From a phage, in the sequence record PZ151149.1: a stretch of DNA of 64,000 nucleotides; one strand, given 5' to 3'. Positions 2,470-52,000 of this stretch are shown piece after piece. The notes beneath the pieces were generated by a model that saw only the letters and a list, made by a program, of their open reading frames with translations, had not been told where the DNA came from and made no database searches. Position 1 is the stretch's first letter, and the number at the start of each line of letters is the position of its first letter. The position numbers were made by a program, and so were the translations under genes.

Positions 2470-3583
2470 CATTATGTTCAGCGCGGTTCGCTACTCCCGC
2501 GCCCGTTCTCTTGCGAACTGCTACATGTCACCATGTAGATCAGACTATATCACATTCTCATAGAGAATCCTGCCATTTCGAATCGCTTGATTCTACTCTA
2601 CTCGGTTCGTTACCCTTTCGATAGTCGTTGAACAACTGCATCTTTAAGCTCATTTTGATCAAACGGTGTTCTCTTACAGTATCCGCTATAATTCTTAGCA
2701 AAAGGTTTCTTCTTACCAAAAATCTCTTTTCCTGAATTGTGTGCTTCAACAAGAAAATTCACCATTTCATCAAATGTGAAACTTGCAAATTTAGCATAAG
2801 TTTCATTACGTTTTGACATTATTTTACTCATAACTTCCGGTCGTTTAGACGCTGAATTTTCGCGTTTCTCGCCAGTATTAAATGATACCAACTCACCGGA
2901 AACATATCTAGGATCATCACAACTAACTCTAAACCGATTTCCTTCCTTATCCTTAACGATAACAGTATTCTTTAGCTTTTCTGCCATAGAATCAAGACCT
3001 TTTCGTATAGTGTCCTCATCAGCCCCGAAATATTTCTTTCCGCTCATATCGGTTCTGGCTTTTCCGGTCTTGTTTTCGGATATTTTCAGTCTAACTTCCT
3101 CTCGCTTGGCTGGGTTATTGTCTCCAGCGAATGCATCTTTGGTTAACGCCTTCACTTTATCGTCATAAGATCCTCTAGAGATGAAAGCATATGCTCTCTT
3201 GCATTCACCGTTATTGAATATTAAGCACAATAACCGATGCGCCTCGACGTGGTCTTCAAACTTAAGCCTAACAAGATTCCATTTATCTAACCGATATTCA
3301 GGGAACATTGACTTCGGGCATATATGATGCACCTCGGAATATTCTTCACCCTGATACGGATTAGACACCAGTTTAATGTAGTCGTTTAATGCTTCCTCGT
3401 TATGTATTTCGTACTTTCTTAAAATGTCTTTCATCTCGCGCCTCCAATGTATATCAATATCTATATACATTATAAGACACGTTAGCTCAAAATGCAACTG
3501 CTGCTGATTGTCTCCTTAGAGATTTCCCAGCAATTAAGCAGGTTATTCGATCACTGTCACCAGTGAAAGCCCCATATCAGTTT
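2470..3583 (-). ncRNA. Group I (IA2, T4 td/nrdB-like) self-splicing intron interrupting gene 43
   Basis: 5' exon ends ...CCCU with intron GGGG internal guide 10 nt downstream (P1); 3' part has AACGACUAUC ... GAUAUAGUCUG ... CAUGGUGACAUG ... CUGAACAUAAUG-G nearly identical to the T4 td intron core/3' end; exon joining restores SL-YPSIIRQ reading frame. Confidence 0.8.
2610..3434 (-). CDS. Intron-encoded HNH homing endonuclease
   Basis: ORF inside the intron; motif EVHHICPKSMFPEY...N...HVEAH typical of HNH; ATG at 3434 preceded by GGAGG. Confidence 0.75.
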   Translation of the reverse strand: MKDILRKYEIHNEEALNDYIKLVSNPYQGEEYSEVHHICPKSMFPEYRLDKWNLVRLKFEDHVEAHRLLCLIFNNGECKRAYAFISRGSYDDKVKALTKDAFAGDNNPAKREEVRLKISENKTGKARTDMSGKKYFGADEDTIRKGLDSMAEKLKNTVIVKDKEGNRFRVSCDDPRYVSGELVSFNTGEKRENSASKRPEVMSKIMSKRNETYAKFASFTFDEMVNFLVEAHNSGKEIFGKKKPFAKNYSGYCKRTPFDQNELKDAVVQRLSKG

Positions 3584-4785
3584 AGGGAAGTAAGGTCAAA
3601 GCTCATCATCCAACGGTAAGCATTCGGCACAGGTTCTTTTACAAATGCGCCTGGATACGTCTGCTTAGGCTGTATCTTATTTTCCGGTACTACTTTACCC
3701 TCTGCTTTCAGAGATCCGAAGATAATAGCATCCCATACTTTCATCGGATTATAAACATGGTTAAATTTAATCTTTGCATAGAAACATAGGCTATACACCA
3801 GATCAATAAAACCACGCTTTTTATCAATCGCCAGCACACGGTCAACGTCGCCGATGTTATAATCGATGTAAAGTTGATGGTTGTCATCACGCAATTTCTT
3901 TAATGGACCATCATAATCAACCTTACCGATTCCTGTCTCATATTCAGCAACATAATCTAATGCATATGTTGGTTGAGTCGTAAAGCTAAATTTCTTGTAC
4001 AGGTCAATATAATCAAGGCTTTCGATCCCCATGATCGTAAATGCTTCACGCTCATTGCCAAAATCATCCTGTGAGATTCGGGATTTAATCTTACCGCACG
4101 GGCTTAATCGGTTTGCCGTTCGACTTCCAAACTTATTACTGATACGCTTAATGATATACGGGATATCGAATGTTTCTGTGTTCCAGCCAGTGAAGCCAAC
4201 TGGTCGGTTTTCCTCAAAGAATCGGATGTATTCTAATAGCAATTCATCTTCTGTATCATAGACGTTATAAACAACGCGCTCTACAATATCAGGTCGAAGA
4301 ATAGATTTGTTTGCTTCCCAGATTTCACCGTTTTTTCCTTTCAAATCAAATACAAAGAAACGATCATGTACGGAATCATAATGCGTAATTGCATCGATAG
4401 GATATTTCGCCTCTTCTGGTTTAGGAAATTCCGGTGCGGTGACCTCAATATCAACCCACGCTACACGGATTTTATTTCGGTCATATCGAATCTCACCTTT
4501 ATATGCATCAGACAGATAGGAGATGATAAAATCATCCATACCTAGTGCCTCTTGCCCCATTTCCCCCATCCTTTTACGCCATTTGTTGGCCTCGTTCATA
4601 GATGGGAATTTTTTAGCAATGCAAGGCTTGCCATAGATATCTTTATAATTTGTAACCATACCAGGCGCGGCATGATGAAATAATGTTGGCGTATATTCAA
4701 CGTAACGCTCTTGTTCTTGTCCAGCATCATCAATATAACGCTCGTAGATCTTATCACCTACTCGCTCACATGACAGAAAATACAT
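3584..4785 (-). CDS. 43: DNA polymerase gp43, exon 1 (N-terminal exonuclease part)
   Basis: Translation ERYID...AITHYDS...FTGWN...MSFDLTSL aligns to T4 gp43 N-terminus; ATG at 4785 with AGGAG SD (longest ORF starts at GTG 4815); the in-frame stop at 3577 is inside the intron. Confidence 0.85.
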
Positions 4786-5810: not shown

Positions 5811-6784
5811 TATACGAACTCCAATTCAACCATTAATTGCATTAACAAAAAGACAATGTGAATCTCTTTATCAGCCGCGTGTGCAAACATCTGATTATTT
5901 TCACCGATGATCTCAGTGAGACGAATAATCGACGCTGGCTTAACTTGAGTATATAACTCATTATAAAGTTTCTTGACAAATTGAGCGTATGTATTGGTAT
6001 ATCGTGGCGCAAGTTTACGCACATTAGCAAACTGTTTAGTTTTAAGTGCTTCCACCACATCGGTTACTTCGGTATTGCTACTTTCGATAACCATGCTCAA
6101 TACGCCAGCATCAATTTTACCGTGTTTTGCGTAACGGTCCAAAAGTTTCATTACGCGCCGGAAGTCTGGGAAATTTTGCTTAACCAGTTCCGCTAATACT
6201 CGCATCTCTTCTACTGGCACACCTTCTTTATCAAGAATTGCTTTACACCGGACGATCATTTCTTTCATCATGCGAAGCTGATCATCTTTAGTCGGAGATC
6301 CAAACGTGATGGGGTCAAATCTAGATCGCAACGCTGGGATAATACCTTCTAGATCATTTGCTGTAATGATGAACGTCACATTGTTTGAGTATGCCTCAGA
6401 GAAACTACGCAAGTGTCTTTGAGCATCAGCCAGCCCCGCTCGGTCATACTCATCGATAATAACAACTTTGCCTTTTTCTCTTTTTTCTTCATCGAGCGAT
6501 ACACTCTGCGCAAAGCGTGTAATCTCATCGCGGATAAAATCAATCTTACAATCTGCGCCGTTAACAAACAGATAATCAACACCCACATCTTCGCAAAGCG
6601 CCTTAGCAACGGTTGTTTTACCAGTACCCGGCGATGGGCTATGCAGGATCATAGAAGGGATTCGGCCTTGCTTAACAATCTGCGCGAAGATCTTTTTATC
6701 TGCTTCCGGCAGAATACATTCAGAAATTGATTTCGGACGGTATTTCTGTTCCCACTGAAACTCATTTTCATTAACACTCAGCAT
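5810..6784 (-). CDS. 44: Clamp loader ATPase gp44 (AAA+)
   Basis: Walker A SPSPGTGKTTVAKAL, high identity to T4 gp44; ATG at 6784 with GAGGTGA SD. Confidence 0.9.
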   Translation of the reverse strand: MLSVNENEFQWEQKYRPKSISECILPEADKKIFAQIVKQGRIPSMILHSPSPGTGKTTVAKALCEDVGVDYLFVNGADCKIDFIRDEITRFAQSVSLDEEKREKGKVVIIDEYDRAGLADAQRHLRSFSEAYSNNVTFIITANDLEGIIPALRSRFDPITFGSPTKDDQLRMMKEMIVRCKAILDKEGVPVEEMRVLAELVKQNFPDFRRVMKLLDRYAKHGKIDAGVLSMVIESSNTEVTDVVEALKTKQFANVRKLAPRYTNTYAQFVKKLYNELYTQVKPASIIRLTEIIGENNQMFAHAADKEIHIVFLLMQLMVELEFV

Positions 6785-6807
6785 ATAATCACCTCTCACA
6801 AATTACA

Positions 6808-6837
6808 TCATTAAAACGGGGAGTATTTACACTCCCC
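6808..6837 (-). terminator. Hairpin GGGGAGU-loop-ACUCCCC followed by U-rich tract between genes 45 and 44 (possible attenuator)
   Basis: 7-bp GC-rich stem then GUUUUAAUGA on minus strand. Confidence 0.35.
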
Positions 6838-6850
6838 CACAAACATTATA

Positions 6851-7537
6851 TTAGTCGGTGTAGCTGGAGTCAAGGTCACACGCGATCATATAAGATACGG
6901 TTTCACTTGCCAGCCATACAGCTTTACGGCGAGTGAAGCTCAATTTGTAATCGCCGAAGTCAGTAGCAACCAGTTTCATATTATCTTTACGAATAAAGAA
7001 ATGGAAGTCGGCGGTTCCGGCATATTCGCCCATGTCAAGACAAAACATCTCATTAGGATTATTTTTGTCAATCTCTTCCCAACCTTTGATCATCAGACGA
7101 CCATCAATCGGTAGAAACTCAAGGCGATCCACTTTAAGCTGATTGCTCATTTTCATAAGCTGTTTCAGATCGTCGTTGCTCAGTTCGTAATCTACATCGC
7201 TTGCAGGTGGAGTAACTCGGCCTTTCGGTGATACGATAGCAGCAGCACTAGCACCAGGGTAATTAATTTTCAGACGATCATTAGACACACGAATGTTACC
7301 AGTGCGGTCATCAACCGTAATATCTGCTTCATCGCCTACCAGATTCAGAATACCCAGGAAAGAGTTAAGATCATAGATCCCGATTTCGTGTTCCAGTTCT
7401 TGATTCAGAGTCGCTTCACCATATACAACGTTTGTCATGTTTTTGGTGATCAGGACGTTTCCTTTTTTCAGGATGATACCTGGGTTAATAGCGGAAAAGT
7501 TTTTAAGGATCGCAACAGTTTCTTTAGTTAGTTTCAT
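6851..7537 (-). CDS. 45: Sliding clamp gp45
   Basis: High identity to T4 gp45 (MKL.K.T.A.LKNF..INSGI.LK); ATG at 7537 with AAGGTGA SD (longest ORF starts at TTG 7543). Confidence 0.9.
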   Translation of the reverse strand: MKLTKETVAILKNFSAINPGIILKKGNVLITKNMTNVVYGEATLNQELEHEIGIYDLNSFLGILNLVGDEADITVDDRTGNIRVSNDRLKINYPGASAAAIVSPKGRVTPPASDVDYELSNDDLKQLMKMSNQLKVDRLEFLPIDGRLMIKGWEEIDKNNPNEMFCLDMGEYAGTADFHFFIRKDNMKLVATDFGDYKLSFTRRKAVWLASETVSYMIACDLDSSYTD

Positions 7538-47508: not shown

Positions 47509-48042
47509 CTAAAAATTTAAACTAGCATAATCTCCAAAATGTTCCTTTGCTGCTTCGTCATAAGCCTTTGCAGCATCAACTTCGTCAAGAAAGACGCCCA
47601 AATGGACCTTTCTACGATTGATTGATATCTGAGCACACCATTTGTTATTCTGTGTTCTAATCACTCCTTTATACTTACTCTTACAACCATCAAGTTTTCC
47701 GCGATTGAATGCATTTTCCTGAGAAGTGGATTCTCTCAAGTTATCCGGTGCATTATTTTCTCGGTTTCTATCTATATGGTCGATCATTTTAACTTGCGTA
47801 CCATGTTCAAGATACCAAACAACCCTATGAACTTTAATGACCAAAGAATAGCCATCACTGCGCCAAAACTTAAAACATAGATAACCTCGACTATTTTTAT
47901 AAACTTTAACCGGGTCTCCTGCCTTATACCATCGACCATTCTTTCCACTATCTTTCAAATGGTACAATATACCATTAACGTGTTTATACTTATCTCTAAT
48001 TTCTTTTTGTGTAAAATCATCCCACATCTTAAACCCAGACAT
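47509..48042 (-). CDS. Free-standing HNH-AP2 homing endonuclease
   Basis: HNH motif IDHIDRNRENNAPDNL and AP2-type DNA-binding domain YKGVIR...WCAQI...VHLGVF...AAKAYDEAA; ATG with AGGAG SD. Confidence 0.7.
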   Translation of the reverse strand: MSGFKMWDDFTQKEIRDKYKHVNGILYHLKDSGKNGRWYKAGDPVKVYKNSRGYLCFKFWRSDGYSLVIKVHRVVWYLEHGTQVKMIDHIDRNRENNAPDNLRESTSQENAFNRGKLDGCKSKYKGVIRTQNNKWCAQISINRRKVHLGVFLDEVDAAKAYDEAAKEHFGDYASLNF

Positions 48043-48262
48043 ACATTTTCTCCTGATAATATTATTAATAACAACATCAATCTAACATATCTAGTATATA
48101 ATGTCAATTGTCGCTTTGCGACGTGCCGTAGGCACTGACTACTTTTTAACCGAAACAAATTTTCTATATTCTAAAGATCTTTCTTCGTTTTGGTTATGTT
48201 TTAACCAATAACTATATTTTTATACAGTAATAAATAAAACTGGTACTATACGAGGACTTCTT

Positions 48263-48517
48263 ATGACAGAAGACATTTTGTTAAAACTCTATGATCGTTT
48301 GGATAACGAATTAGCAACATTGCGGGGTGAAGTTCTCTATTTGTCTAAATGCAATACAGATCTGATTAAGCAGATTGCCGAAAGGGATGACCAAATAAAA
48401 TCCCTTTCAGGCGCATTACGTGATCGCGACAAGGCATTAGAGATTTTACAGCGTGTAACCAATAAAGAAGAGTTGAAAGACTTTCTACATGGTTATGCTC
48501 ACGCCATCGATCTATAA
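48263..48517 (+). CDS. hypothetical coiled-coil protein (isolated plus-strand gene)
   Basis: 84-aa ORF, GAGGA SD 6 nt upstream, followed directly by a hairpin terminator. Confidence 0.45.
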   Translation: MTEDILLKLYDRLDNELATLRGEVLYLSKCNTDLIKQIAERDDQIKSLSGALRDRDKALEILQRVTNKEELKDFLHGYAHAIDL

Positions 48518-48520
48518 TAA

Positions 48521-48548
48521 AAAGCCCGTCAATGACGGGCTTAATTTT
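48521..48548. terminator. Bidirectional hairpin terminator
   Basis: GCCCGUC-AAUG-ACGGGC flanked by U tracts on both strands; sits between convergent genes. Confidence 0.55.
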
Positions 48549-49575
48549 AATATGTATCAGCTAATTTAATTATGTTATCAAGTTCCGTGATTGGTAAAGT
48601 TTCTGTGTATCCATCTTTCAACATGGATTTATCAACAACGCCACAATGATAAGTTCTCTTTATTTCCTTTTCAAGTTCCCACGGAATCCAGCCATCAACA
48701 CTTTGTTTGACGTAAACAAGTTTGTGAACAAACTTAGATTTCTGCATATGTTGTTTCATTCTGGTTTCCGGTAATTCATTGGTTACACCAAACTTTATAA
48801 ATTTATCATCTAACGTCTGGATATAAAAATATCCCATCTCAGATGGACGATAGCCAGAAGAACTACATTTCGGACACCCTTTAGCATTTCTGTTGAACGT
48901 ACAATATCTTACAGAAAATTCGGCGTCATGTTTTGTACATTTAAGTTTTATCCATGAATTTGCAGTACCTATCCATTCACCATCGACACCTATATATTCA
49001 TACCCTAACTTTTTACATTTATCTTCTATTCTAGATAGTGCATCTTCCACGGGAACGACATATTCCGTCTTAAATTGTTCAGCCGCACATTTCTTACAAC
49101 CACATGTACCATGATTTTTAAAATCAAAGAACTTTGTATTCTTCCAAATATGGTCATGTTTCTTGCATCTAAGAATCATCTTAGTAATTTGTGATTTCCA
49201 GCCACCAACAAATCCCAAAAATTCATAATCAAGATCTTTACATTTTTCTTCAATGAATTTGGTTGCTTCATCTTCTGTCATAACTCCCCTACATTGAGGG
49301 CAACCAACAATAACCTTTTTAGCATAGAAACTATTACTGGAAACATCATAGACAGTTCCATGCTTATTGCATTGGATAACAGATCTAGTCAATTTTCCTT
49401 TCCATTCTCCAGTAAATCCTAAGAATGTATGGTCGACAAGTTTACATCTTTCAATAACTTTATCTGCAAACTCTCTAGGAGATTTTGTTACCTTGTTTAC
49501 TCTGTATTCTATTTCTTCCGGTTGACGAAGATCATAAACGTGGGGATTTCTCCCCACGGAATTAATATTAAGCAT
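48547..49575 (-). CDS. Zinc-finger-repeat protein with C-terminal T5orf172/GIY-YIG-like domain (putative homing endonuclease or DNA-binding protein)
   Basis: Three ~45-aa repeats each with C..H ... C.KH ... GCP.C; C-terminal GYFYIQTLDDKFIKFGVTNELPETR resembles T5orf172; start ATG 49575 overlaps stop of gene 2. Confidence 0.55.
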   Translation of the reverse strand: MLNINSVGRNPHVYDLRQPEEIEYRVNKVTKSPREFADKVIERCKLVDHTFLGFTGEWKGKLTRSVIQCNKHGTVYDVSSNSFYAKKVIVGCPQCRGVMTEDEATKFIEEKCKDLDYEFLGFVGGWKSQITKMILRCKKHDHIWKNTKFFDFKNHGTCGCKKCAAEQFKTEYVVPVEDALSRIEDKCKKLGYEYIGVDGEWIGTANSWIKLKCTKHDAEFSVRYCTFNRNAKGCPKCSSSGYRPSEMGYFYIQTLDDKFIKFGVTNELPETRMKQHMQKSKFVHKLVYVKQSVDGWIPWELEKEIKRTYHCGVVDKSMLKDGYTETLPITELDNIIKLADTY

Positions 49576-50389
49576 CTTTCCACACCTTCCTTGCATCATA
49601 GTTTTTACCTTTAGAAACAAATTTATATGTGTTAAGGTAGATAATATTGCTCCAGTCTTTCGGGCTAATCTCAACAAGTTTTGTTTTAATGTGTCCCGGT
49701 AGATATGCTTTGATCATGTGGTCACTACCACGCATACCTTTTACATCACTCCATTTAATCTTCAAGCGTGTTTTATTGCTCAAGGTAGGAGTAGATGCAT
49801 ATTGCTTTAAAAGTGCTTCCAGAAACTGCTGACGGGCTTTAGGCGTTACATAGTGTAAGTTAAGACCCAGCATTACAGTATTACCCGCCTTTGTCTTAGA
49901 ATCACCCAGACAAATGATCAGCGGGAAAACATCCCAATATGGCAAAGTATCTTTATACTTCGCATCATACATAAAGGTATAGATTCGCCCTACTTGCGGT
50001 TTTACAATCTGGTGTCCCTTTATTCCAGCTTTTATTGTTTTAGTAAACCACTCCTGTGATTTTTCTTTAGGACGACTCTTTGATACAGCACGCATAGACG
50101 CACGAAAATCATTAATCATCATCATTGCGCGTTGCTGCTTATTGAGACCCTTTGCACCTTTCCCTTTTAGTTTTTCAACTTCTATTGCTGTTTTAATTTC
50201 GCTGGCATAACGAGACATACTTTTAGTGAAAGTCGCATAGGCTATTCCCTTAGAATCTGCAAATGCTTTAGCTGTCATTCCTTTGGCTTTTGCTTTCGCA
50301 AATTCTACACCCAATTCGACCCACTGTTTAGACTTTCGCTTTTGGGGAGACGGCTTTTCGTCTTCTGTGATTATTTCAAATACGCTCAT
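49568..50389 (-). CDS. 2: DNA end-protector protein gp2 (by synteny and length)
   Basis: 273 aa from ATG 50389 with GAGGA SD; position between gene 3 and gene 4; call rests mainly on gene order. Confidence 0.5.
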   Translation of the reverse strand: MSVFEIITEDEKPSPQKRKSKQWVELGVEFAKAKAKGMTAKAFADSKGIAYATFTKSMSRYASEIKTAIEVEKLKGKGAKGLNKQQRAMMMINDFRASMRAVSKSRPKEKSQEWFTKTIKAGIKGHQIVKPQVGRIYTFMYDAKYKDTLPYWDVFPLIICLGDSKTKAGNTVMLGLNLHYVTPKARQQFLEALLKQYASTPTLSNKTRLKIKWSDVKGMRGSDHMIKAYLPGHIKTKLVEISPKDWSNIIYLNTYKFVSKGKNYDARKVWKDA

Positions 50390-50423
50390 AATATTGTCCT
50401 CTATGTTTATGTTTGTTACACAC

Positions 50424-50452
50424 TTGACAATCCTCTTTGCTATTGCTAAAAT
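50424..50452 (+). promoter_or_regulatory. sigma70-type promoter TTGACA-17-TAAAAT for plus-strand HNH gene
   Basis: Exact -35; plus strand; 60 nt upstream of ATG 50516. Confidence 0.45.
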
Positions 50453-50515
50453 GCAGACGAAAATAAACAGCGATACTTGTTGATAAATATCATTATAACA
50501 CAGGAGGAACATTAG

Positions 50516-51538
50516 ATGCAAGATATTAAGAACAAAATTTTGATGCAGTTTCCGAATGCAGATATCAAGTATTTAGAAAAGTATCTAGAAATTTGTGCAA
50601 ACCCAGATAAGGATGGGGAATTAGAGAGGCATCATATTCTACCAAAATCAATTTGGAAGGAATATGAAGACCTTAAAATTCATGATTTTAATGCTGTTCA
50701 CTTGAACACCGTTCGTCATATGATGGCACACTACTATTTCAGTAAAGCAACAAATTCCATTTGGAAGTCTGTTGTTATGATGTTTAATACCAGAATTGAT
50801 ATTATGAAGGAATTGCCAGAAGATATTGTGTTGAAACTTGCTGGTATATCAGAAGAGGCAAAGCGAAAACATGTATACACGGAAGAATCTAGACTGAAAA
50901 TGTCGGAATCACAAAAACGTTTCATGGCTTCTCTTGATGAAGAAGAATTAAAACGTCGCCATAAGAAAAGAACTGATTCCGTTAAAGAACATTTTAGAAA
51001 CTTGAGCGATGAAGAACGAGAAAGAAAGTATAAAGAACGTGGCAAGAAAATATCAAAGGCGTTAAGTAATAGATCAGAGGAAAAACTTAAATTACGAAGA
51101 GAAAGGCTTCTACAAACTATAAACTCAAAGTCAGACGAAGAAAAACAAAGAATCGCCAAACTACTTTCAGATTCACAAAAACCGAAAGAAACATGGGGAA
51201 AATTTGATGAGTTATATGCATTATGGATTGATCTGAATATGCCGGGTCAATATGTATTCAAGCGCGAGGCCATTAAACGTGGATACCCAGATAGGTCATA
51301 TGATTACATCGTTAAAGAAATGAAAAATAAGTACATAAAGGAGAATGGAAACGACATAATAAAATTAAATCCCAGAAAAAATTCTGGTGTCTGGGTATAT
51401 TATGACGAAATATATAAGCTGTGGAAAGAAAATGGTATGCCTAGCGATAGAAAAACAAGAAAAATAGCGGTCGAGAATGGTTATCCCGACCAATGCTATC
51501 AAACTATAGTAAAAGACTTTAAGAACTCACTTATTTAA
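50516..51538 (+). CDS. Free-standing HNH endonuclease with C-terminal repeat domain
   Basis: N-terminal ERHHILPKSIW...N..HLNTVRHMMAH HNH motif; two C-terminal repeats (YDEIYKLWKENGMP...ENGYPD and FDELYALWIDLNMP...KRGYPD). Confidence 0.65.
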   Translation: MQDIKNKILMQFPNADIKYLEKYLEICANPDKDGELERHHILPKSIWKEYEDLKIHDFNAVHLNTVRHMMAHYYFSKATNSIWKSVVMMFNTRIDIMKELPEDIVLKLAGISEEAKRKHVYTEESRLKMSESQKRFMASLDEEELKRRHKKRTDSVKEHFRNLSDEERERKYKERGKKISKALSNRSEEKLKLRRERLLQTINSKSDEEKQRIAKLLSDSQKPKETWGKFDELYALWIDLNMPGQYVFKREAIKRGYPDRSYDYIVKEMKNKYIKENGNDIIKLNPRKNSGVWVYYDEIYKLWKENGMPSDRKTRKIAVENGYPDQCYQTIVKDFKNSLI

Positions 51539-52000
51539 ACCTTTAAAACCGAACACCTTTTTTAATGTGTGTTCGGTTATGATTTTAAATTCCATATTAT
51601 GTTTTTTACACAATGCTACTGCCGCTGCCCACTTTTCGGTATTTTTCGTCCACGTCCAAGCCTCCATCATATAACGCTGCTTTGTTTTAGTCGTTAATCG
51701 CTTTGGCTTTTCTGGTGGTCTAGTCTCTTTGGCTGGCTTAATTTCCCATAAATGCTCTTTTCCATCATCAAACTTAACATAAACATCAACAAAATATCTG
51801 TGACGCTTACCGTCTGTTGATGAATTGTAAGGAATTACAACGGTCTCAGATCCCCATTTAACCACATGAGGATTACGGTCACACCATTTAAAAACATGCA
51901 ATTCCCAGCTTGAACGGTATGTGATTTTCCGTATATCCCCTTTATACTTTTCCTTATTCTCAGGAACATACTTGCCCTTATAAGTGTTAGATCCTCCCAT
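51527..52000 (-). CDS. 4: Head completion protein gp4 (by synteny)
   Basis: 157 aa; divergent from gene 53 as in T4; YRSSWE...KWG...YFVDVYVKFDDGKEHLWEIKP. Confidence 0.5.
   Translation of the reverse strand: MGGSNTYKGKYVPENKEKYKGDIRKITYRSSWELHVFKWCDRNPHVVKWGSETVVIPYNSSTDGKRHRYFVDVYVKFDDGKEHLWEIKPAKETRPPEKPKRLTTKTKQRYMMEAWTWTKNTEKWAAAVALCKKHNMEFKIITEHTLKKVFGFKGLNK

Follow-up and report, generated by a model that had tools for sequence, protein, structure and literature searches.

We found that the phage DNA analysed here (a stretch of 64,000 nucleotides, record PZ151149.1, hereafter the window) most probably contains a homing endonuclease gene (HEG) of the free-standing kind, from the T5orf172 branch within the GIY-YIG superfamily; it is inserted after the stop codon of gene 2 and ahead of the gene 2 terminator in a Krischvirus. 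The window phage is a Krischvirus, an RB49/Phi1-like T4-type coliphage. The first-pass annotation regarded the encoded protein as unusual. This view did not hold, since its layout is the T5orf172 homing-endonuclease architecture published in 2021 and 2023 (PMC8096241, PMC10448857), and the HEG is an ordinary member of this already described family.

The protein consists of an N-terminal leader, three CapR-type zinc modules and a C-terminal T5orf172/GIY-YIG nuclease domain. It matches PHROG 681 'endonuclease' as a whole protein (E 1.6e-79), and tblastn revealed homology to ICP1 TcgB/Gp130, which is annotated as 'putative homing endonuclease'. Near-identical copies of the gene are already in GenBank. 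The gene and its parts are as follows.

48547..49575, minus strand: candidate HEG, 342 codons plus TAA, from the ORF list
49483..49575, minus strand: N-terminal leader, residues 1-31, synonymous sites unusually conserved in the DNA
49282..49482, minus strand: CapR-type zinc module 1, residues 32-98, predicted ligands C69, H72, C92, C95
49060..49281, minus strand: CapR-type zinc module 2, residues 99-172, predicted ligands C137, H140, C160, C163
48853..49059, minus strand: CapR-type zinc module 3, residues 173-241, predicted ligands C213, H216, C234, C237
48550..48852, minus strand: T5orf172/MUG113-type GIY-YIG nuclease domain, residues 242-342, motif residues Y251, K261, G263, R272, E302 and DGYTE 321-325

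Three CapR-type zinc modules in the N-terminal part

The three internal repeats, each of about 70 aa, align with one another at local scores of 85-115 (shuffle mean 24; z 13.7-18.7) and 28-37% identity. Pfam CapR (PF21817, gathering score 24.2 bits) matched the whole protein in three stretches with 54.6 bits (E 1.2e-14). The zinc-finger-like repeats noticed in the first-pass annotation are therefore CapR homology domains. Their period is 68-75 aa and not about 45 aa as first given, a figure that takes in just the conserved core, which runs from the EKCK helix to GCPxC. When the modules were scanned alone, modules 2 and 3 reached 32.1 and 30.8 bits for CapR, above the 24.2 cut-off. Module 1 stayed sub-threshold (CapR 18.6 bits, DUF723 19.3 bits), but it is clearly homologous to the other two by the repeat alignments.

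All three repeats contain two conserved pairs about 17-26 residues apart, the spacing that we used to define CapR-type ligands, and the predicted metal-ligand set is C-x2-H-x17-19-C-x2-C in each. In Salmonella homologues, CxxC replaces CxxH at module 2; such alternation of H and C at the second-ligand column is expected of a metal ligand. For CapR itself the motif has been published as CxxC...CxC, and its sequence-specific DNA binding, together with the need for four metal ligands, was shown by EMSA and Cys-to-Ser mutants (PMC8096241). The predicted CxxH...CxxC set is thus a ligand variant of this motif. Conservation of the repeats in homologues had been proposed as a test of the first annotation. 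We found 47 homologues, and CapR repeats were present in all of those scanned (25/25). Foldseek against the PDB returned weak tandem-dsRBD matches for the repeats, with probability up to 0.5. No paralogues of the HEG turned up when tblastn and HMM searches were run on the whole 64-kb window.

A predicted T5orf172/GIY-YIG nuclease domain at the C-terminus

The C-terminus carries the motifs GYFYIQ...IKFGVT...R...E...DGYTE. The residues Y251, K261, G263, R272, E302, D321, G322 and E325 are invariant across 25 homologues; K261/G263 form the KxG motif, and E302 is the presumed catalytic Glu from its position after strand 3. Pfam PF10544 (T5orf172) and PF13455 (MUG113) gave no match at E up to 10 with the whole protein or the isolated C-terminus, and a scan of the isolated C-terminus with NCBIfam and Pfam likewise gave no T5orf172 or MUG113 match. 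The sole nuclease model to pick up the query was PF01541 GIY-YIG, at a sub-threshold level (E 0.048, 14.4 bits, cut-off 22.6).

The C-terminal profile aligned with residues 295-393 of ICP1 TcgB at an hhalign probability of 99.0% (E 3e-18), and residues 295-387 of TcgB are T5orf172 by Pfam (21.2 bits, cut-off 20). The profile also aligned with the endonuclease of the T5-like phage NR01 (98.9%, E 2e-17). Among the 25 full-length homologues, 12 match MUG113 and seven match T5orf172. The resemblance to T5orf172 that was first noticed in the letters thus proved to be homology, by the hhalign match to TcgB and the matches of the homologues. The AF2 model of the domain is confident (pLDDT 95.7), with the element order E-E-H-E-H-E-H; the GIY-YIG core is beta-beta-alpha-beta-alpha. 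Foldseek with this model ranked GIY-YIG proteins second to third in the PDB at a weak E of 0.9-1.2. Neither the full model nor the isolated domain gave a significant Foldseek match to the PDB, and the C-terminal profile, run with hmmsearch on PDB sequences, returned nothing meaningful.

The candidate HEG occupies the junction of gene 2 and its terminator

To describe the insertion site, filled and empty junctions were compared base by base. The elements of the filled junction are listed below.

49568..50389, minus strand: gene 2, DNA end protector gp2 (PHROG 429, E 2.7e-71)
49583..49592, minus strand: Shine-Dalgarno-like AAGGAAGGTG within the gene 2 3' end, read from the sequence, 8-17 nt upstream of the HEG ATG
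49568..49575, minus strand: ATGCTTAA, HEG start codon over the gene 2 stop codon (gene 2 TAA at 49570..49568)
49562..49570, minus strand: TAATATTAA, left copy of an imperfect 9-bp direct repeat flanking the insert, from the junction comparison
48541-48549: TAAAATTAA, right copy of the imperfect 9-bp direct repeat, from the junction comparison
48522..48542, bidirectional: intrinsic terminator, common to a convergent 84-aa ORF, -14.6 kcal/mol

The identity of gene 2 is supported by a Pfam Phage_T4_gp2 match of the L004 orthologue and by the Phi1 annotation as gene 2. The terminator is annotated as such in GEC-3S, Makalu_001 and G2248, and it directly follows the gene 2 stop in HEG-less phages. 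The HEG sits exactly between these two elements, and the empty site has a single TAAGATTAA where the filled site has two repeat copies. The junction is uninterrupted in 31 public Krischvirus records, including RB49. The window-type HEG is present at the same junction in 11 records, and at least four phages (JSE, AV108, G37-3, PTE-Eco09) carry there a different HEG that is related by family. Free-standing homing endonuclease genes typically show such a pattern of empty, filled and alternatively filled sites.

We also searched the polymorphisms between HEG+ and HEG- phages for a target or immunity site, and the insertion was the only consistent difference. In the empty-site phage MIZ4 the 3' end of gene 2 is identical to that of the window, so that beyond the insertion itself no polymorphism for immunity is visible. 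The diverged gene 2 patch 49594-49653 divides window/MIZ4 from Phi1/L004, not HEG+ from HEG-.

The overlap of the HEG start with the gene 2 stop, reported in the first-pass annotation, is seen as ATGCTTAA at 49575..49568, and it implies a probable translational coupling of the two genes. The 3' end of gene 2 supplies both the Shine-Dalgarno sequence and the start codon of the HEG; the ATG is built from the gene 2 codons GAT GCx and is already there in empty-site phages. The in-frame ATGs at 49596 and 49599, chosen by RAST and one gene caller, are disfavoured as the main start because their Shine-Dalgarno spacing is poorer and most curated records use the equivalent of 49575, an argument that falls short of proof.

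No T4-type late promoter TATAAATA was found on the minus strand near genes 4, 2 or the HEG, and the five matches in the whole window are at chance level. One 7/8 match, TATAAATT, lies inside gene 2; it is present in empty-site phages too and was left out of the count. Rfam returned around the HEG a chance-level Trp-leader match alone (E 0.83).

A terminator-like hairpin at the start of the HEG

A stable hairpin was found 18-37 nt into the HEG reading frame.

49539..49558, minus strand: 8-bp GC-rich hairpin with GNRA tetraloop GAAA, from the terminator scan, CGUGGGGA-GAAA-UCCCCACG
49529-49538, minus strand: U-rich tail directly 3' of the hairpin, UUUAUGAUCU

Its stability (-15.6 kcal/mol) was reached by none of 200 shuffles and matches that of the genuine terminator downstream. 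A terminator-like hairpin within the first ten codons had been reported for this gene; the hairpin is there, but it spans codons 6-13 and so reaches beyond the tenth. The letters first given for it included the plus strand; in the mRNA the sequence is GGGGAGAAAUCCCC. Across three alleles the loop varies between GAAA, GCAA and GAGA, on an invariant 7-bp stem. The U-tract (UUUAUGAUCU) is weak and interrupted. The leader has a pS of 0.00-0.05, compared with 0.3-0.8 elsewhere in the HEG (window vs Phi1, and vs L004), and the block of high identity and conserved synonymous sites extends over 49444-49593.

T4 mobE and segF combine a start/stop overlap with a terminator in the 5' coding region (PMC2988022). 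By analogy, the overlap and the hairpin of the window HEG appear to copy this arrangement, with a putative terminator role for the hairpin. In its location, the length of its stem, its 4-nt loop and its U-rich tail, the hairpin fits the T4 terminator description. This argues against the possible but rather doubtful alternative that it acts on RNA, either by stabilising the 3' end of processed gene 2 mRNA or by modulating the initiation or elongation of translation at the start of the HEG. Such an action is favoured by the interruption of the U-tract and by the beginning of the stem at +18/+19, the edge of the footprint of an initiating ribosome. The conservation of synonymous sites over the whole block suggests more than a simple terminator, and RNA hairpins controlling translation are common in T4 HEGs (PMC2988022). 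The GNRA loop is also retained in three alleles despite amino-acid changes, which is weak evidence because there are only two loop substitutions, with a chance of about 0.1 that both stay GNRA.

Alleles, selection and alternative roles of the protein

The HEG at this site is 98-99% identical in eight phages and 84% identical in Phi1. Its reading frame is intact in 11/11 records and in one metagenomic allele. The dN/dS is 0.09-0.29 between alleles, indicating purifying selection, and 0.06-0.29 in every domain, and pN in the nuclease domain is 0-0.025. Between the window and Phi1, codons 1-98 and 242-342 are near-identical, while zinc modules 2-3 show pS of 0.63-0.70 and pN of 0.24-0.29. The alleles are thus mosaic, an instance of the shuffling of binding modules that is known from T5orf172 HEGs (PMC10448857).

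Purifying selection suits a useful function and a selfish one equally. We also considered a domesticated, HEG-derived protein that no longer homes and serves the phage. It could be a sequence-specific DNA-binding regulator, as with the satellite repressor CapR or the autorepression of I-TevI, or a nuclease against competitors, satellites or host DNA, as with ICP1 Odn. There are precedents for both, as CapR-type modules alone are a transcriptional repressor in PLE (PMC8096241) and nucleases of the T5orf172 class have been recruited to act on satellites (PMC10448857); moreover, bioinformatics alone does not decide whether a given nuclease gene homes (PMC10448857). However, the gene is missing from most close relatives (the 31 empty-site records) and can be replaced at its site by an unrelated member of the family, which suits a selfish insertion better than a function for the phage. 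The protein has kept its nuclease core residues. The alignment of CapR with the ICP1 proteins is confined to their N-terminal part, outside the nuclease (PMC8096241), and a Pfam search found no satellite-derived binding domain such as RepA_N. We consider this repurposing unlikely.

A decaying, inactive HEG remnant that persists at the insertion site after fixation in a sub-lineage is very improbable: degeneration is part of HEG life cycles, the query has no match above threshold to Pfam nuclease models and module 1 is below the CapR threshold, but the intact frames, the low dN/dS in every domain with little amino-acid change in the nuclease, the presence of all family-invariant residues and the confident AF2 nuclease model argue against it.

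Proposed mode of expression and homing

Under the homing endonuclease reading, the HEG, which has no evident promoter of its own, would be transcribed by read-through from gene 2. Some transcripts would end at the GNRA hairpin and its U-rich tail, by analogy with T4 mobE, where about 30% terminate; the hairpin now holds the former place of the gene 2 terminator. Ribosomes ending gene 2 at UAA would re-initiate at the AUG 5 nt upstream (AUGCUUAA), aided by the Shine-Dalgarno AAGGAAGG inside gene 2, and the enzyme would be kept scarce.

From what is known of CapR, the three tandem zinc modules would read a long asymmetric DNA site. The C-terminal domain, with its conserved Tyr, Arg and Glu intact, would cut DNA; Glu-dependent nuclease activity has been shown for the ICP1 T5orf172 protein Odn. 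As the presence/absence pattern suggests, HEG-less relatives in a mixed infection would be cut at or near the gene 2/terminator junction, and recombinational repair from the HEG-carrying genome would copy the HEG in. Homing has so far been verified for no T5orf172 HEG (PMC10448857).

Comparison with known systems

ICP1 encodes several putative HEGs with CapR and T5orf172 domains, namely Gp130/TcgB, Gp165, Gp174, Gp121 and Gp53 (Netter et al. 2021, PMC8096241; Barth et al. 2023, PMC10448857). Like these, the window protein combines N-terminal tandem zinc modules of the CapR/DUF723/DUF4379 type with a C-terminal T5orf172 domain (tblastn E 3e-6 over residues 108-342; hhalign 99% for the nuclease domain). 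Both adjoin essential or structural genes, and in both the binding modules are shuffled between alleles. However, the host here is a T4-type coliphage (Krischvirus) and not ICP1, the ligands are CxxH...CxxC where CapR is described with CxxC...CxC, and sequence identity is only about 26%. In the 2023 survey, the family was enriched in Plateaulakeviruses, T5-like and VpaJT-like phages, and T4 itself has none (PMC10448857).

T4 mobE and segF (Edgell, Gibb & Belfort 2010, PMC2988022) are likewise intergenic free-standing HEGs of a T4-type phage, with the start codon over the upstream stop and a terminator or terminator-like hairpin with a 4-nt loop in the 5' coding end. Their expression needs the transcript of the upstream gene, as we infer for the window HEG. 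SegF shares with it a nuclease within the GIY-YIG superfamily, whereas MobE is an HNH enzyme. The T4 Seg proteins have a canonical GIY-YIG domain at the N-terminus and DNA-binding modules at the C-terminus; in the window protein, of the T5orf172 branch, the order is reversed (binding N-terminal, nuclease C-terminal). Homing was shown by experiment for SegF and MobE, while the window gene is known from sequence. The CapR of PLE, a Vibrio cholerae satellite repressor, has the same zinc-module fold family (PF21817), but it stands alone with one module, unlike the three modules and conserved nuclease domain of the window protein.

The 380-aa endonuclease of the JSE/AV108 type belongs to the same family, with four CapR stretches and a weak T5orf172 match. 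Its gene has the same downstream junction (TAA GATTAAGCCC...) and there, too, a GC hairpin immediately follows the stop of gene 2. In contrast to the window HEG, it has its own Shine-Dalgarno sequence and a 56-nt spacer with no start/stop overlap, and it goes with a different gene 2 3' end; the two share 27% aa identity and no nucleotide similarity.

Implications

The junction, with its empty, window/Phi1-type and JSE-type states, could tentatively be read as a contested homing site, a reading that is less likely than not. The window and Phi1 alleles, with leader and nuclease in common but zinc modules 2-3 swapped, may be specificity variants from an ongoing arms race between endonuclease and target-site immunity. 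The hairpin of every invading HEG may substitute for the terminator, restoring the 3' end of gene 2 mRNA. The 150-nt synonymous-conserved block at the HEG start may be a portable regulatory cassette and not a product of coding constraint.

If the contested-site reading is true, these E. coli phages would become the first tractable system to show homing for the T5orf172 class, and the same phages would suit the mapping of DNA reading by tandem CapR modules and tests of target switching. One precisely defined junction separates natural phages with the HEG, without it and with the alternative HEG, all of which grow on E. coli K-12, and homing could be tested on them directly. Natural alleles whose differences fall mainly in two of their three DNA-reading modules could be used to test how CapR modules specify the target. 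The same phage set could test whether the putative in-gene terminator limits endonuclease expression. For annotation, records that list this gene as 'hypothetical protein' can now name it 'putative T5orf172-family homing endonuclease'. Taken alone, the gene is of little weight, being another selfish endonuclease gene in a HEG-collecting phage group; two more HEGs, one HNH-AP2 and one mob-like, have inserted less than 2 kb away.

Insertion at the gene 2 / terminator junction

The phage belongs to Krischvirus and is a T4-type coliphage like RB49 and Phi1. Across the 6 kb around the putative homing endonuclease gene (HEG), identity was 97.9% to phage Cognac and 90-98% to 58 other Krischvirus records. 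On the minus strand the order is gene 4, gene 2, HEG, bidirectional terminator; gene 3 and gene 1 lie further along.

Features of the locus
47509..48042, minus strand: HNH_3 + AP2 HEG, 177 aa (insert 47510-48104), between gene 3 and the 84-aa ORF
48263..48517, plus strand: conserved 84-aa ORF, converging on the terminator
48522..48542: bidirectional terminator, from the terminator scan, -14.6 kcal/mol
48547..49575, minus strand: ORF of the HEG, 342 codons
49558..49539, minus strand: hairpin CGUGGGGA-GAAA-UCCCCACG, HEG codons 6-13, then UUUAUGAUCU
49568..50389, minus strand: gene 2 (DNA end protector), PHROG 429, E 2.7e-71
50516..51538, plus strand: mob-like HNH HEG, 340 aa (insert 50405-51539), PHROG 655, between gene 2 and gene 4
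Before gene 2 in the local order, minus strand: gene 4 (head completion)

In six relatives with an empty site (MIZ4, SSG23, Makalu_001, KFS-EC, GEC-3S and phiS), gene 2 ends in ...GGATGCATAA and the terminator, GATTAAGCCCGTCAATGACGGGC, follows 3-4 nt past this end. Base-level comparison showed that in the window about 1.02 kb carrying the HEG separates left and right sequences that are contiguous in the empty sites. The gene 2 codons GAT GCx, already present in empty sites, form the HEG start codon, and the HEG stop TAA occupies the position of the empty-site gene 2 TAA relative to the terminator. An imperfect 9-bp direct repeat (TAATATTAA and TAAAATTAA) flanks the insert, and the empty site has a single TAAGATTAA.

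The empty junction, searched with a 72-nt probe, was matched at full length in 31 public records, including RB49. Eleven records contain the HEG itself: nine of them, from 8 phages, stand at 98-99% identity, and the other two, the GenBank and RefSeq entries of Phi1, at 84%. The same junction in JSE, AV108, G37-3 and PTE-Eco09 is filled by another member of the family, a 380-aa gene (2747-3889 in the AV108 contig L015; 861-2003 in the JSE contig L020), which has four CapR stretches, a weak T5orf172 match, 27% amino acid identity to the window HEG and no nucleotide similarity to it. Two more HEGs lie within 2 kb in the window, each missing from some relatives. Taken together, the insertion, the empty, filled and alternative states and the neighbouring HEGs form the pattern that marks a free-standing homing endonuclease gene in a hot spot of homing.

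The JSE/AV108-type gene has its own hairpin, AGCGCCGCTGGTGACGGCGCT, in front and a different gene 2 3' end. The HNH_3 + AP2 HEG was found in phiS and AV108 and is absent from Cognac, Phi1 and MIZ4; the mob-like HNH HEG was found in Cognac and is absent from Phi1 and MIZ4, and transcription from gene 4 to gene 2 must traverse it antisense. The 84-aa ORF encodes a coiled-coil protein (phrog_17832, E 4.7e-57), occurs in all Krischvirus loci examined, and converges with the HEG on a terminator common to both.

Zinc modules and nuclease domain

The three internal repeats described in the first-pass annotation are real, with pairwise scores of 85-115 against shuffle means of ~24 (z 13.7-18.7; 28-37% identity). 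Their period is 68-75 aa rather than the ~45 aa first given, which covers the conserved core alone. The Cys/His spacing was recovered as C-x2-H-x17-19-C-x2-C in each repeat.

Zinc modules and ligands
Residues 32-98: module 1, C69/H72/C92/C95
Residues 99-172: module 2, C137/H140/C160/C163
Residues 173-241: module 3, C213/H216/C234/C237

The repeats match the CapR homology domain PF21817 (Pfam; whole protein 54.6 bits, E 1.2e-14). Scored singly, module 2 (32.1 bits) and module 3 (30.8 bits) exceeded the cut-off of 24.2 bits, and module 1 (18.6 bits) fell below it. The related "treble clef" models DUF723 and DUF4379 matched more weakly. A regular expression found three ligand motifs in 25 of 47 homologues and 0-5 in the remainder. 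At the second ligand position His and Cys alternate in one alignment column, as expected of a metal ligand. The AF2 model of the full protein (m70a21baf120f, pLDDT 82) predicted a helix, three strands and a short helix per unit (residues 32-241), and in repeat 2 a helix begins at the second ligand pair, as in a treble clef. The best Foldseek matches of this model were tandem dsRBD proteins, at non-significant scores; this likeness of the predicted CapR units is probably mere topological resemblance. DSRM_RDM1 also gave a weak Pfam match on repeat 2.

For the C-terminus (residues 242-342), neither the T5orf172 nor the MUG113 Pfam model matched the query protein, and a GIY-YIG match was below threshold (E 0.048). 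We found that a profile built from the C-terminal 104 residues of 13 family members aligned to residues 295-393 of ICP1 TcgB (formerly Gp130) with an hhalign probability of 99.0% (E 3e-18), and to the endonuclease of the T5-like phage NR01 with 98.9%. TcgB residues 295-387 match Pfam T5orf172 above threshold. Among full-length homologues, 12 of 25 carry MUG113 and 7 of 25 T5orf172, and several are named "GIY-YIG nuclease family protein" by NCBI. The proposed T5orf172 likeness is therefore upheld, with solid homology at the profile level. The family alignment conserves Y251, K261, G263, R272, E302 and a DGYTE motif, with D321, G322 and E325 invariant. Foldseek gave no significant match for the nuclease fold with either the full or the isolated-domain model, so the fold evidence is rated as moderate.

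Start/stop overlap and 5' hairpin

The HEG start overlaps the gene 2 stop, as first noticed: ATGCTTAA at 49575..49568 holds the HEG ATG and the gene 2 TAA. A Shine-Dalgarno-like AAGGAAGGTG lies within gene 2, 8-17 nt upstream of the ATG. The terminator-like hairpin reported near the HEG start was likewise detected by the terminator scan. Its stability (-15.6 kcal/mol) was reached by 0 of 200 shuffles and is comparable to that of the downstream terminator. The loop is GAAA in the window, GCAA in Cognac, Phi1 and others, and GAGA in the metagenomic contig L004; all are GNRA, although each of the two changes affects the amino acid sequence, and the stem of 7 bp does not vary. With two substitutions only (chance ~0.1), conservation of the GNRA loop is hinted at rather than proven.

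Measured from the gene 2 stop, the hairpin occupies almost exactly the place that the original terminator of gene 2 had, and the unrelated JSE/AV108-type HEG likewise opens with its own GC hairpin directly past the gene 2 stop. Both observations support the idea that the hairpin may replace the displaced terminator and throttle the endonuclease. The 5' coding regions of T4 mobE and segF contain terminators, each built from a GC stem, a loop of 4 nt and a U tract, with ~30% termination at the mobE site; the mobE start codon overlaps the nrdA stop, which was read as down-regulating translational coupling (Edgell, Gibb & Belfort, PMC2988022). By analogy, HEG expression probably mirrors that of mobE and segF.

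Allele evolution

The reading frame is intact in all alleles, and dN/dS, 0.09-0.29 over the whole gene, does not exceed 0.06 in the nuclease domain, indicating that the gene is not decaying. The window and Phi1 alleles are mosaic: codons 1-98 and 242-342 are nearly identical, and modules 2 and 3 show pS 0.63-0.70, pN 0.24-0.29 and 40-80% nucleotide identity (30-nt windows). This matches the DNA-binding repeat exchange reported for the T5orf172 HEG family (PMC10448857).

Codons 1-31 have pS 0.00-0.05, even against L004, the most diverged allele, whose gene 2 differs from that of the window at pS 0.59. A conserved block of ~150 nt (49444-49593) runs across both the gene 2 stop and the HEG start, which suggests that the nucleic acid itself is constrained; a recent, short conversion tract is a possible alternative explanation.

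Adjacent to it, a 60-nt gene 2 patch (49594-49653) has 50-67% identity between window and Phi1, and the rest of gene 2 97-100%. The empty-site phage MIZ4 carries the window version, so the two versions do not sort with the presence of the HEG; the patch may be the trace of an old boundary of recombination or co-conversion. The ECD7 allele (L006, ~1491-1510) has a 6-nt tandem duplication, ATATTA, directly past the start codon, which adds two codons within the AT-rich junction repeat.

Relation to known systems

The protein had been called unusual, a description that does not hold: the HEGs of Netter et al. 2021 and Barth et al. 2023 have exactly the same architecture, in which CapR/DUF723/DUF4379 zinc modules in tandem precede T5orf172. 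At least one such module, and in many cases several, was found in 200 of 229 T5orf172 HEGs (Barth et al., PMC10448857). The differences are minor: the ligands are of the variant form CxxH...CxxC, and the host is a T4-type coliphage; T4 itself lacks T5orf172 genes (PMC10448857). GenBank labels the HEG "endonuclease" (RefSeq Phi1, ECD7), "putative GIY-YIG nuclease family protein" (Skers) or "hypothetical protein". One "seg-like GIY-YIG" HEG was counted in each of phi-1 and JSE by Petrov et al. 2010 (PMC2993671), probably this locus. Our literature search found no paper specifically about the window HEG, which by its architecture we assign to the known T5orf172 HEG class as an uncharacterised member.

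Following the class pattern, the HEG protein would use its three zinc modules to bind a long site and would cleave genomes that lack the HEG, at or near the gene 2 / terminator junction; repair would then copy the HEG into them. DNA binding and ligand dependence have been described for CapR (PMC8096241), and Glu-dependent nuclease activity for the T5orf172 protein Odn, as cited in PMC10448857, which also states that homing by the ICP1 T5orf172 genes was not verified experimentally. For the window HEG, DNA binding, cleavage, homing and mobE-like control are inferred. The locus offers a tractable E. coli system in which homing, the recognition of targets by modules and control by a terminator within the ORF could be examined for T5orf172 enzymes.

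Salmonella and E. coli chromosomes also encode CapR + MUG113 proteins, ~29% identical to the HEG protein (6001-7083 in the Salmonella enterica contigs L016 and L017). Their genes lie among small unannotated genes near a phage pRha gene and adjoin housekeeping genes, a region that is probably a prophage or satellite.
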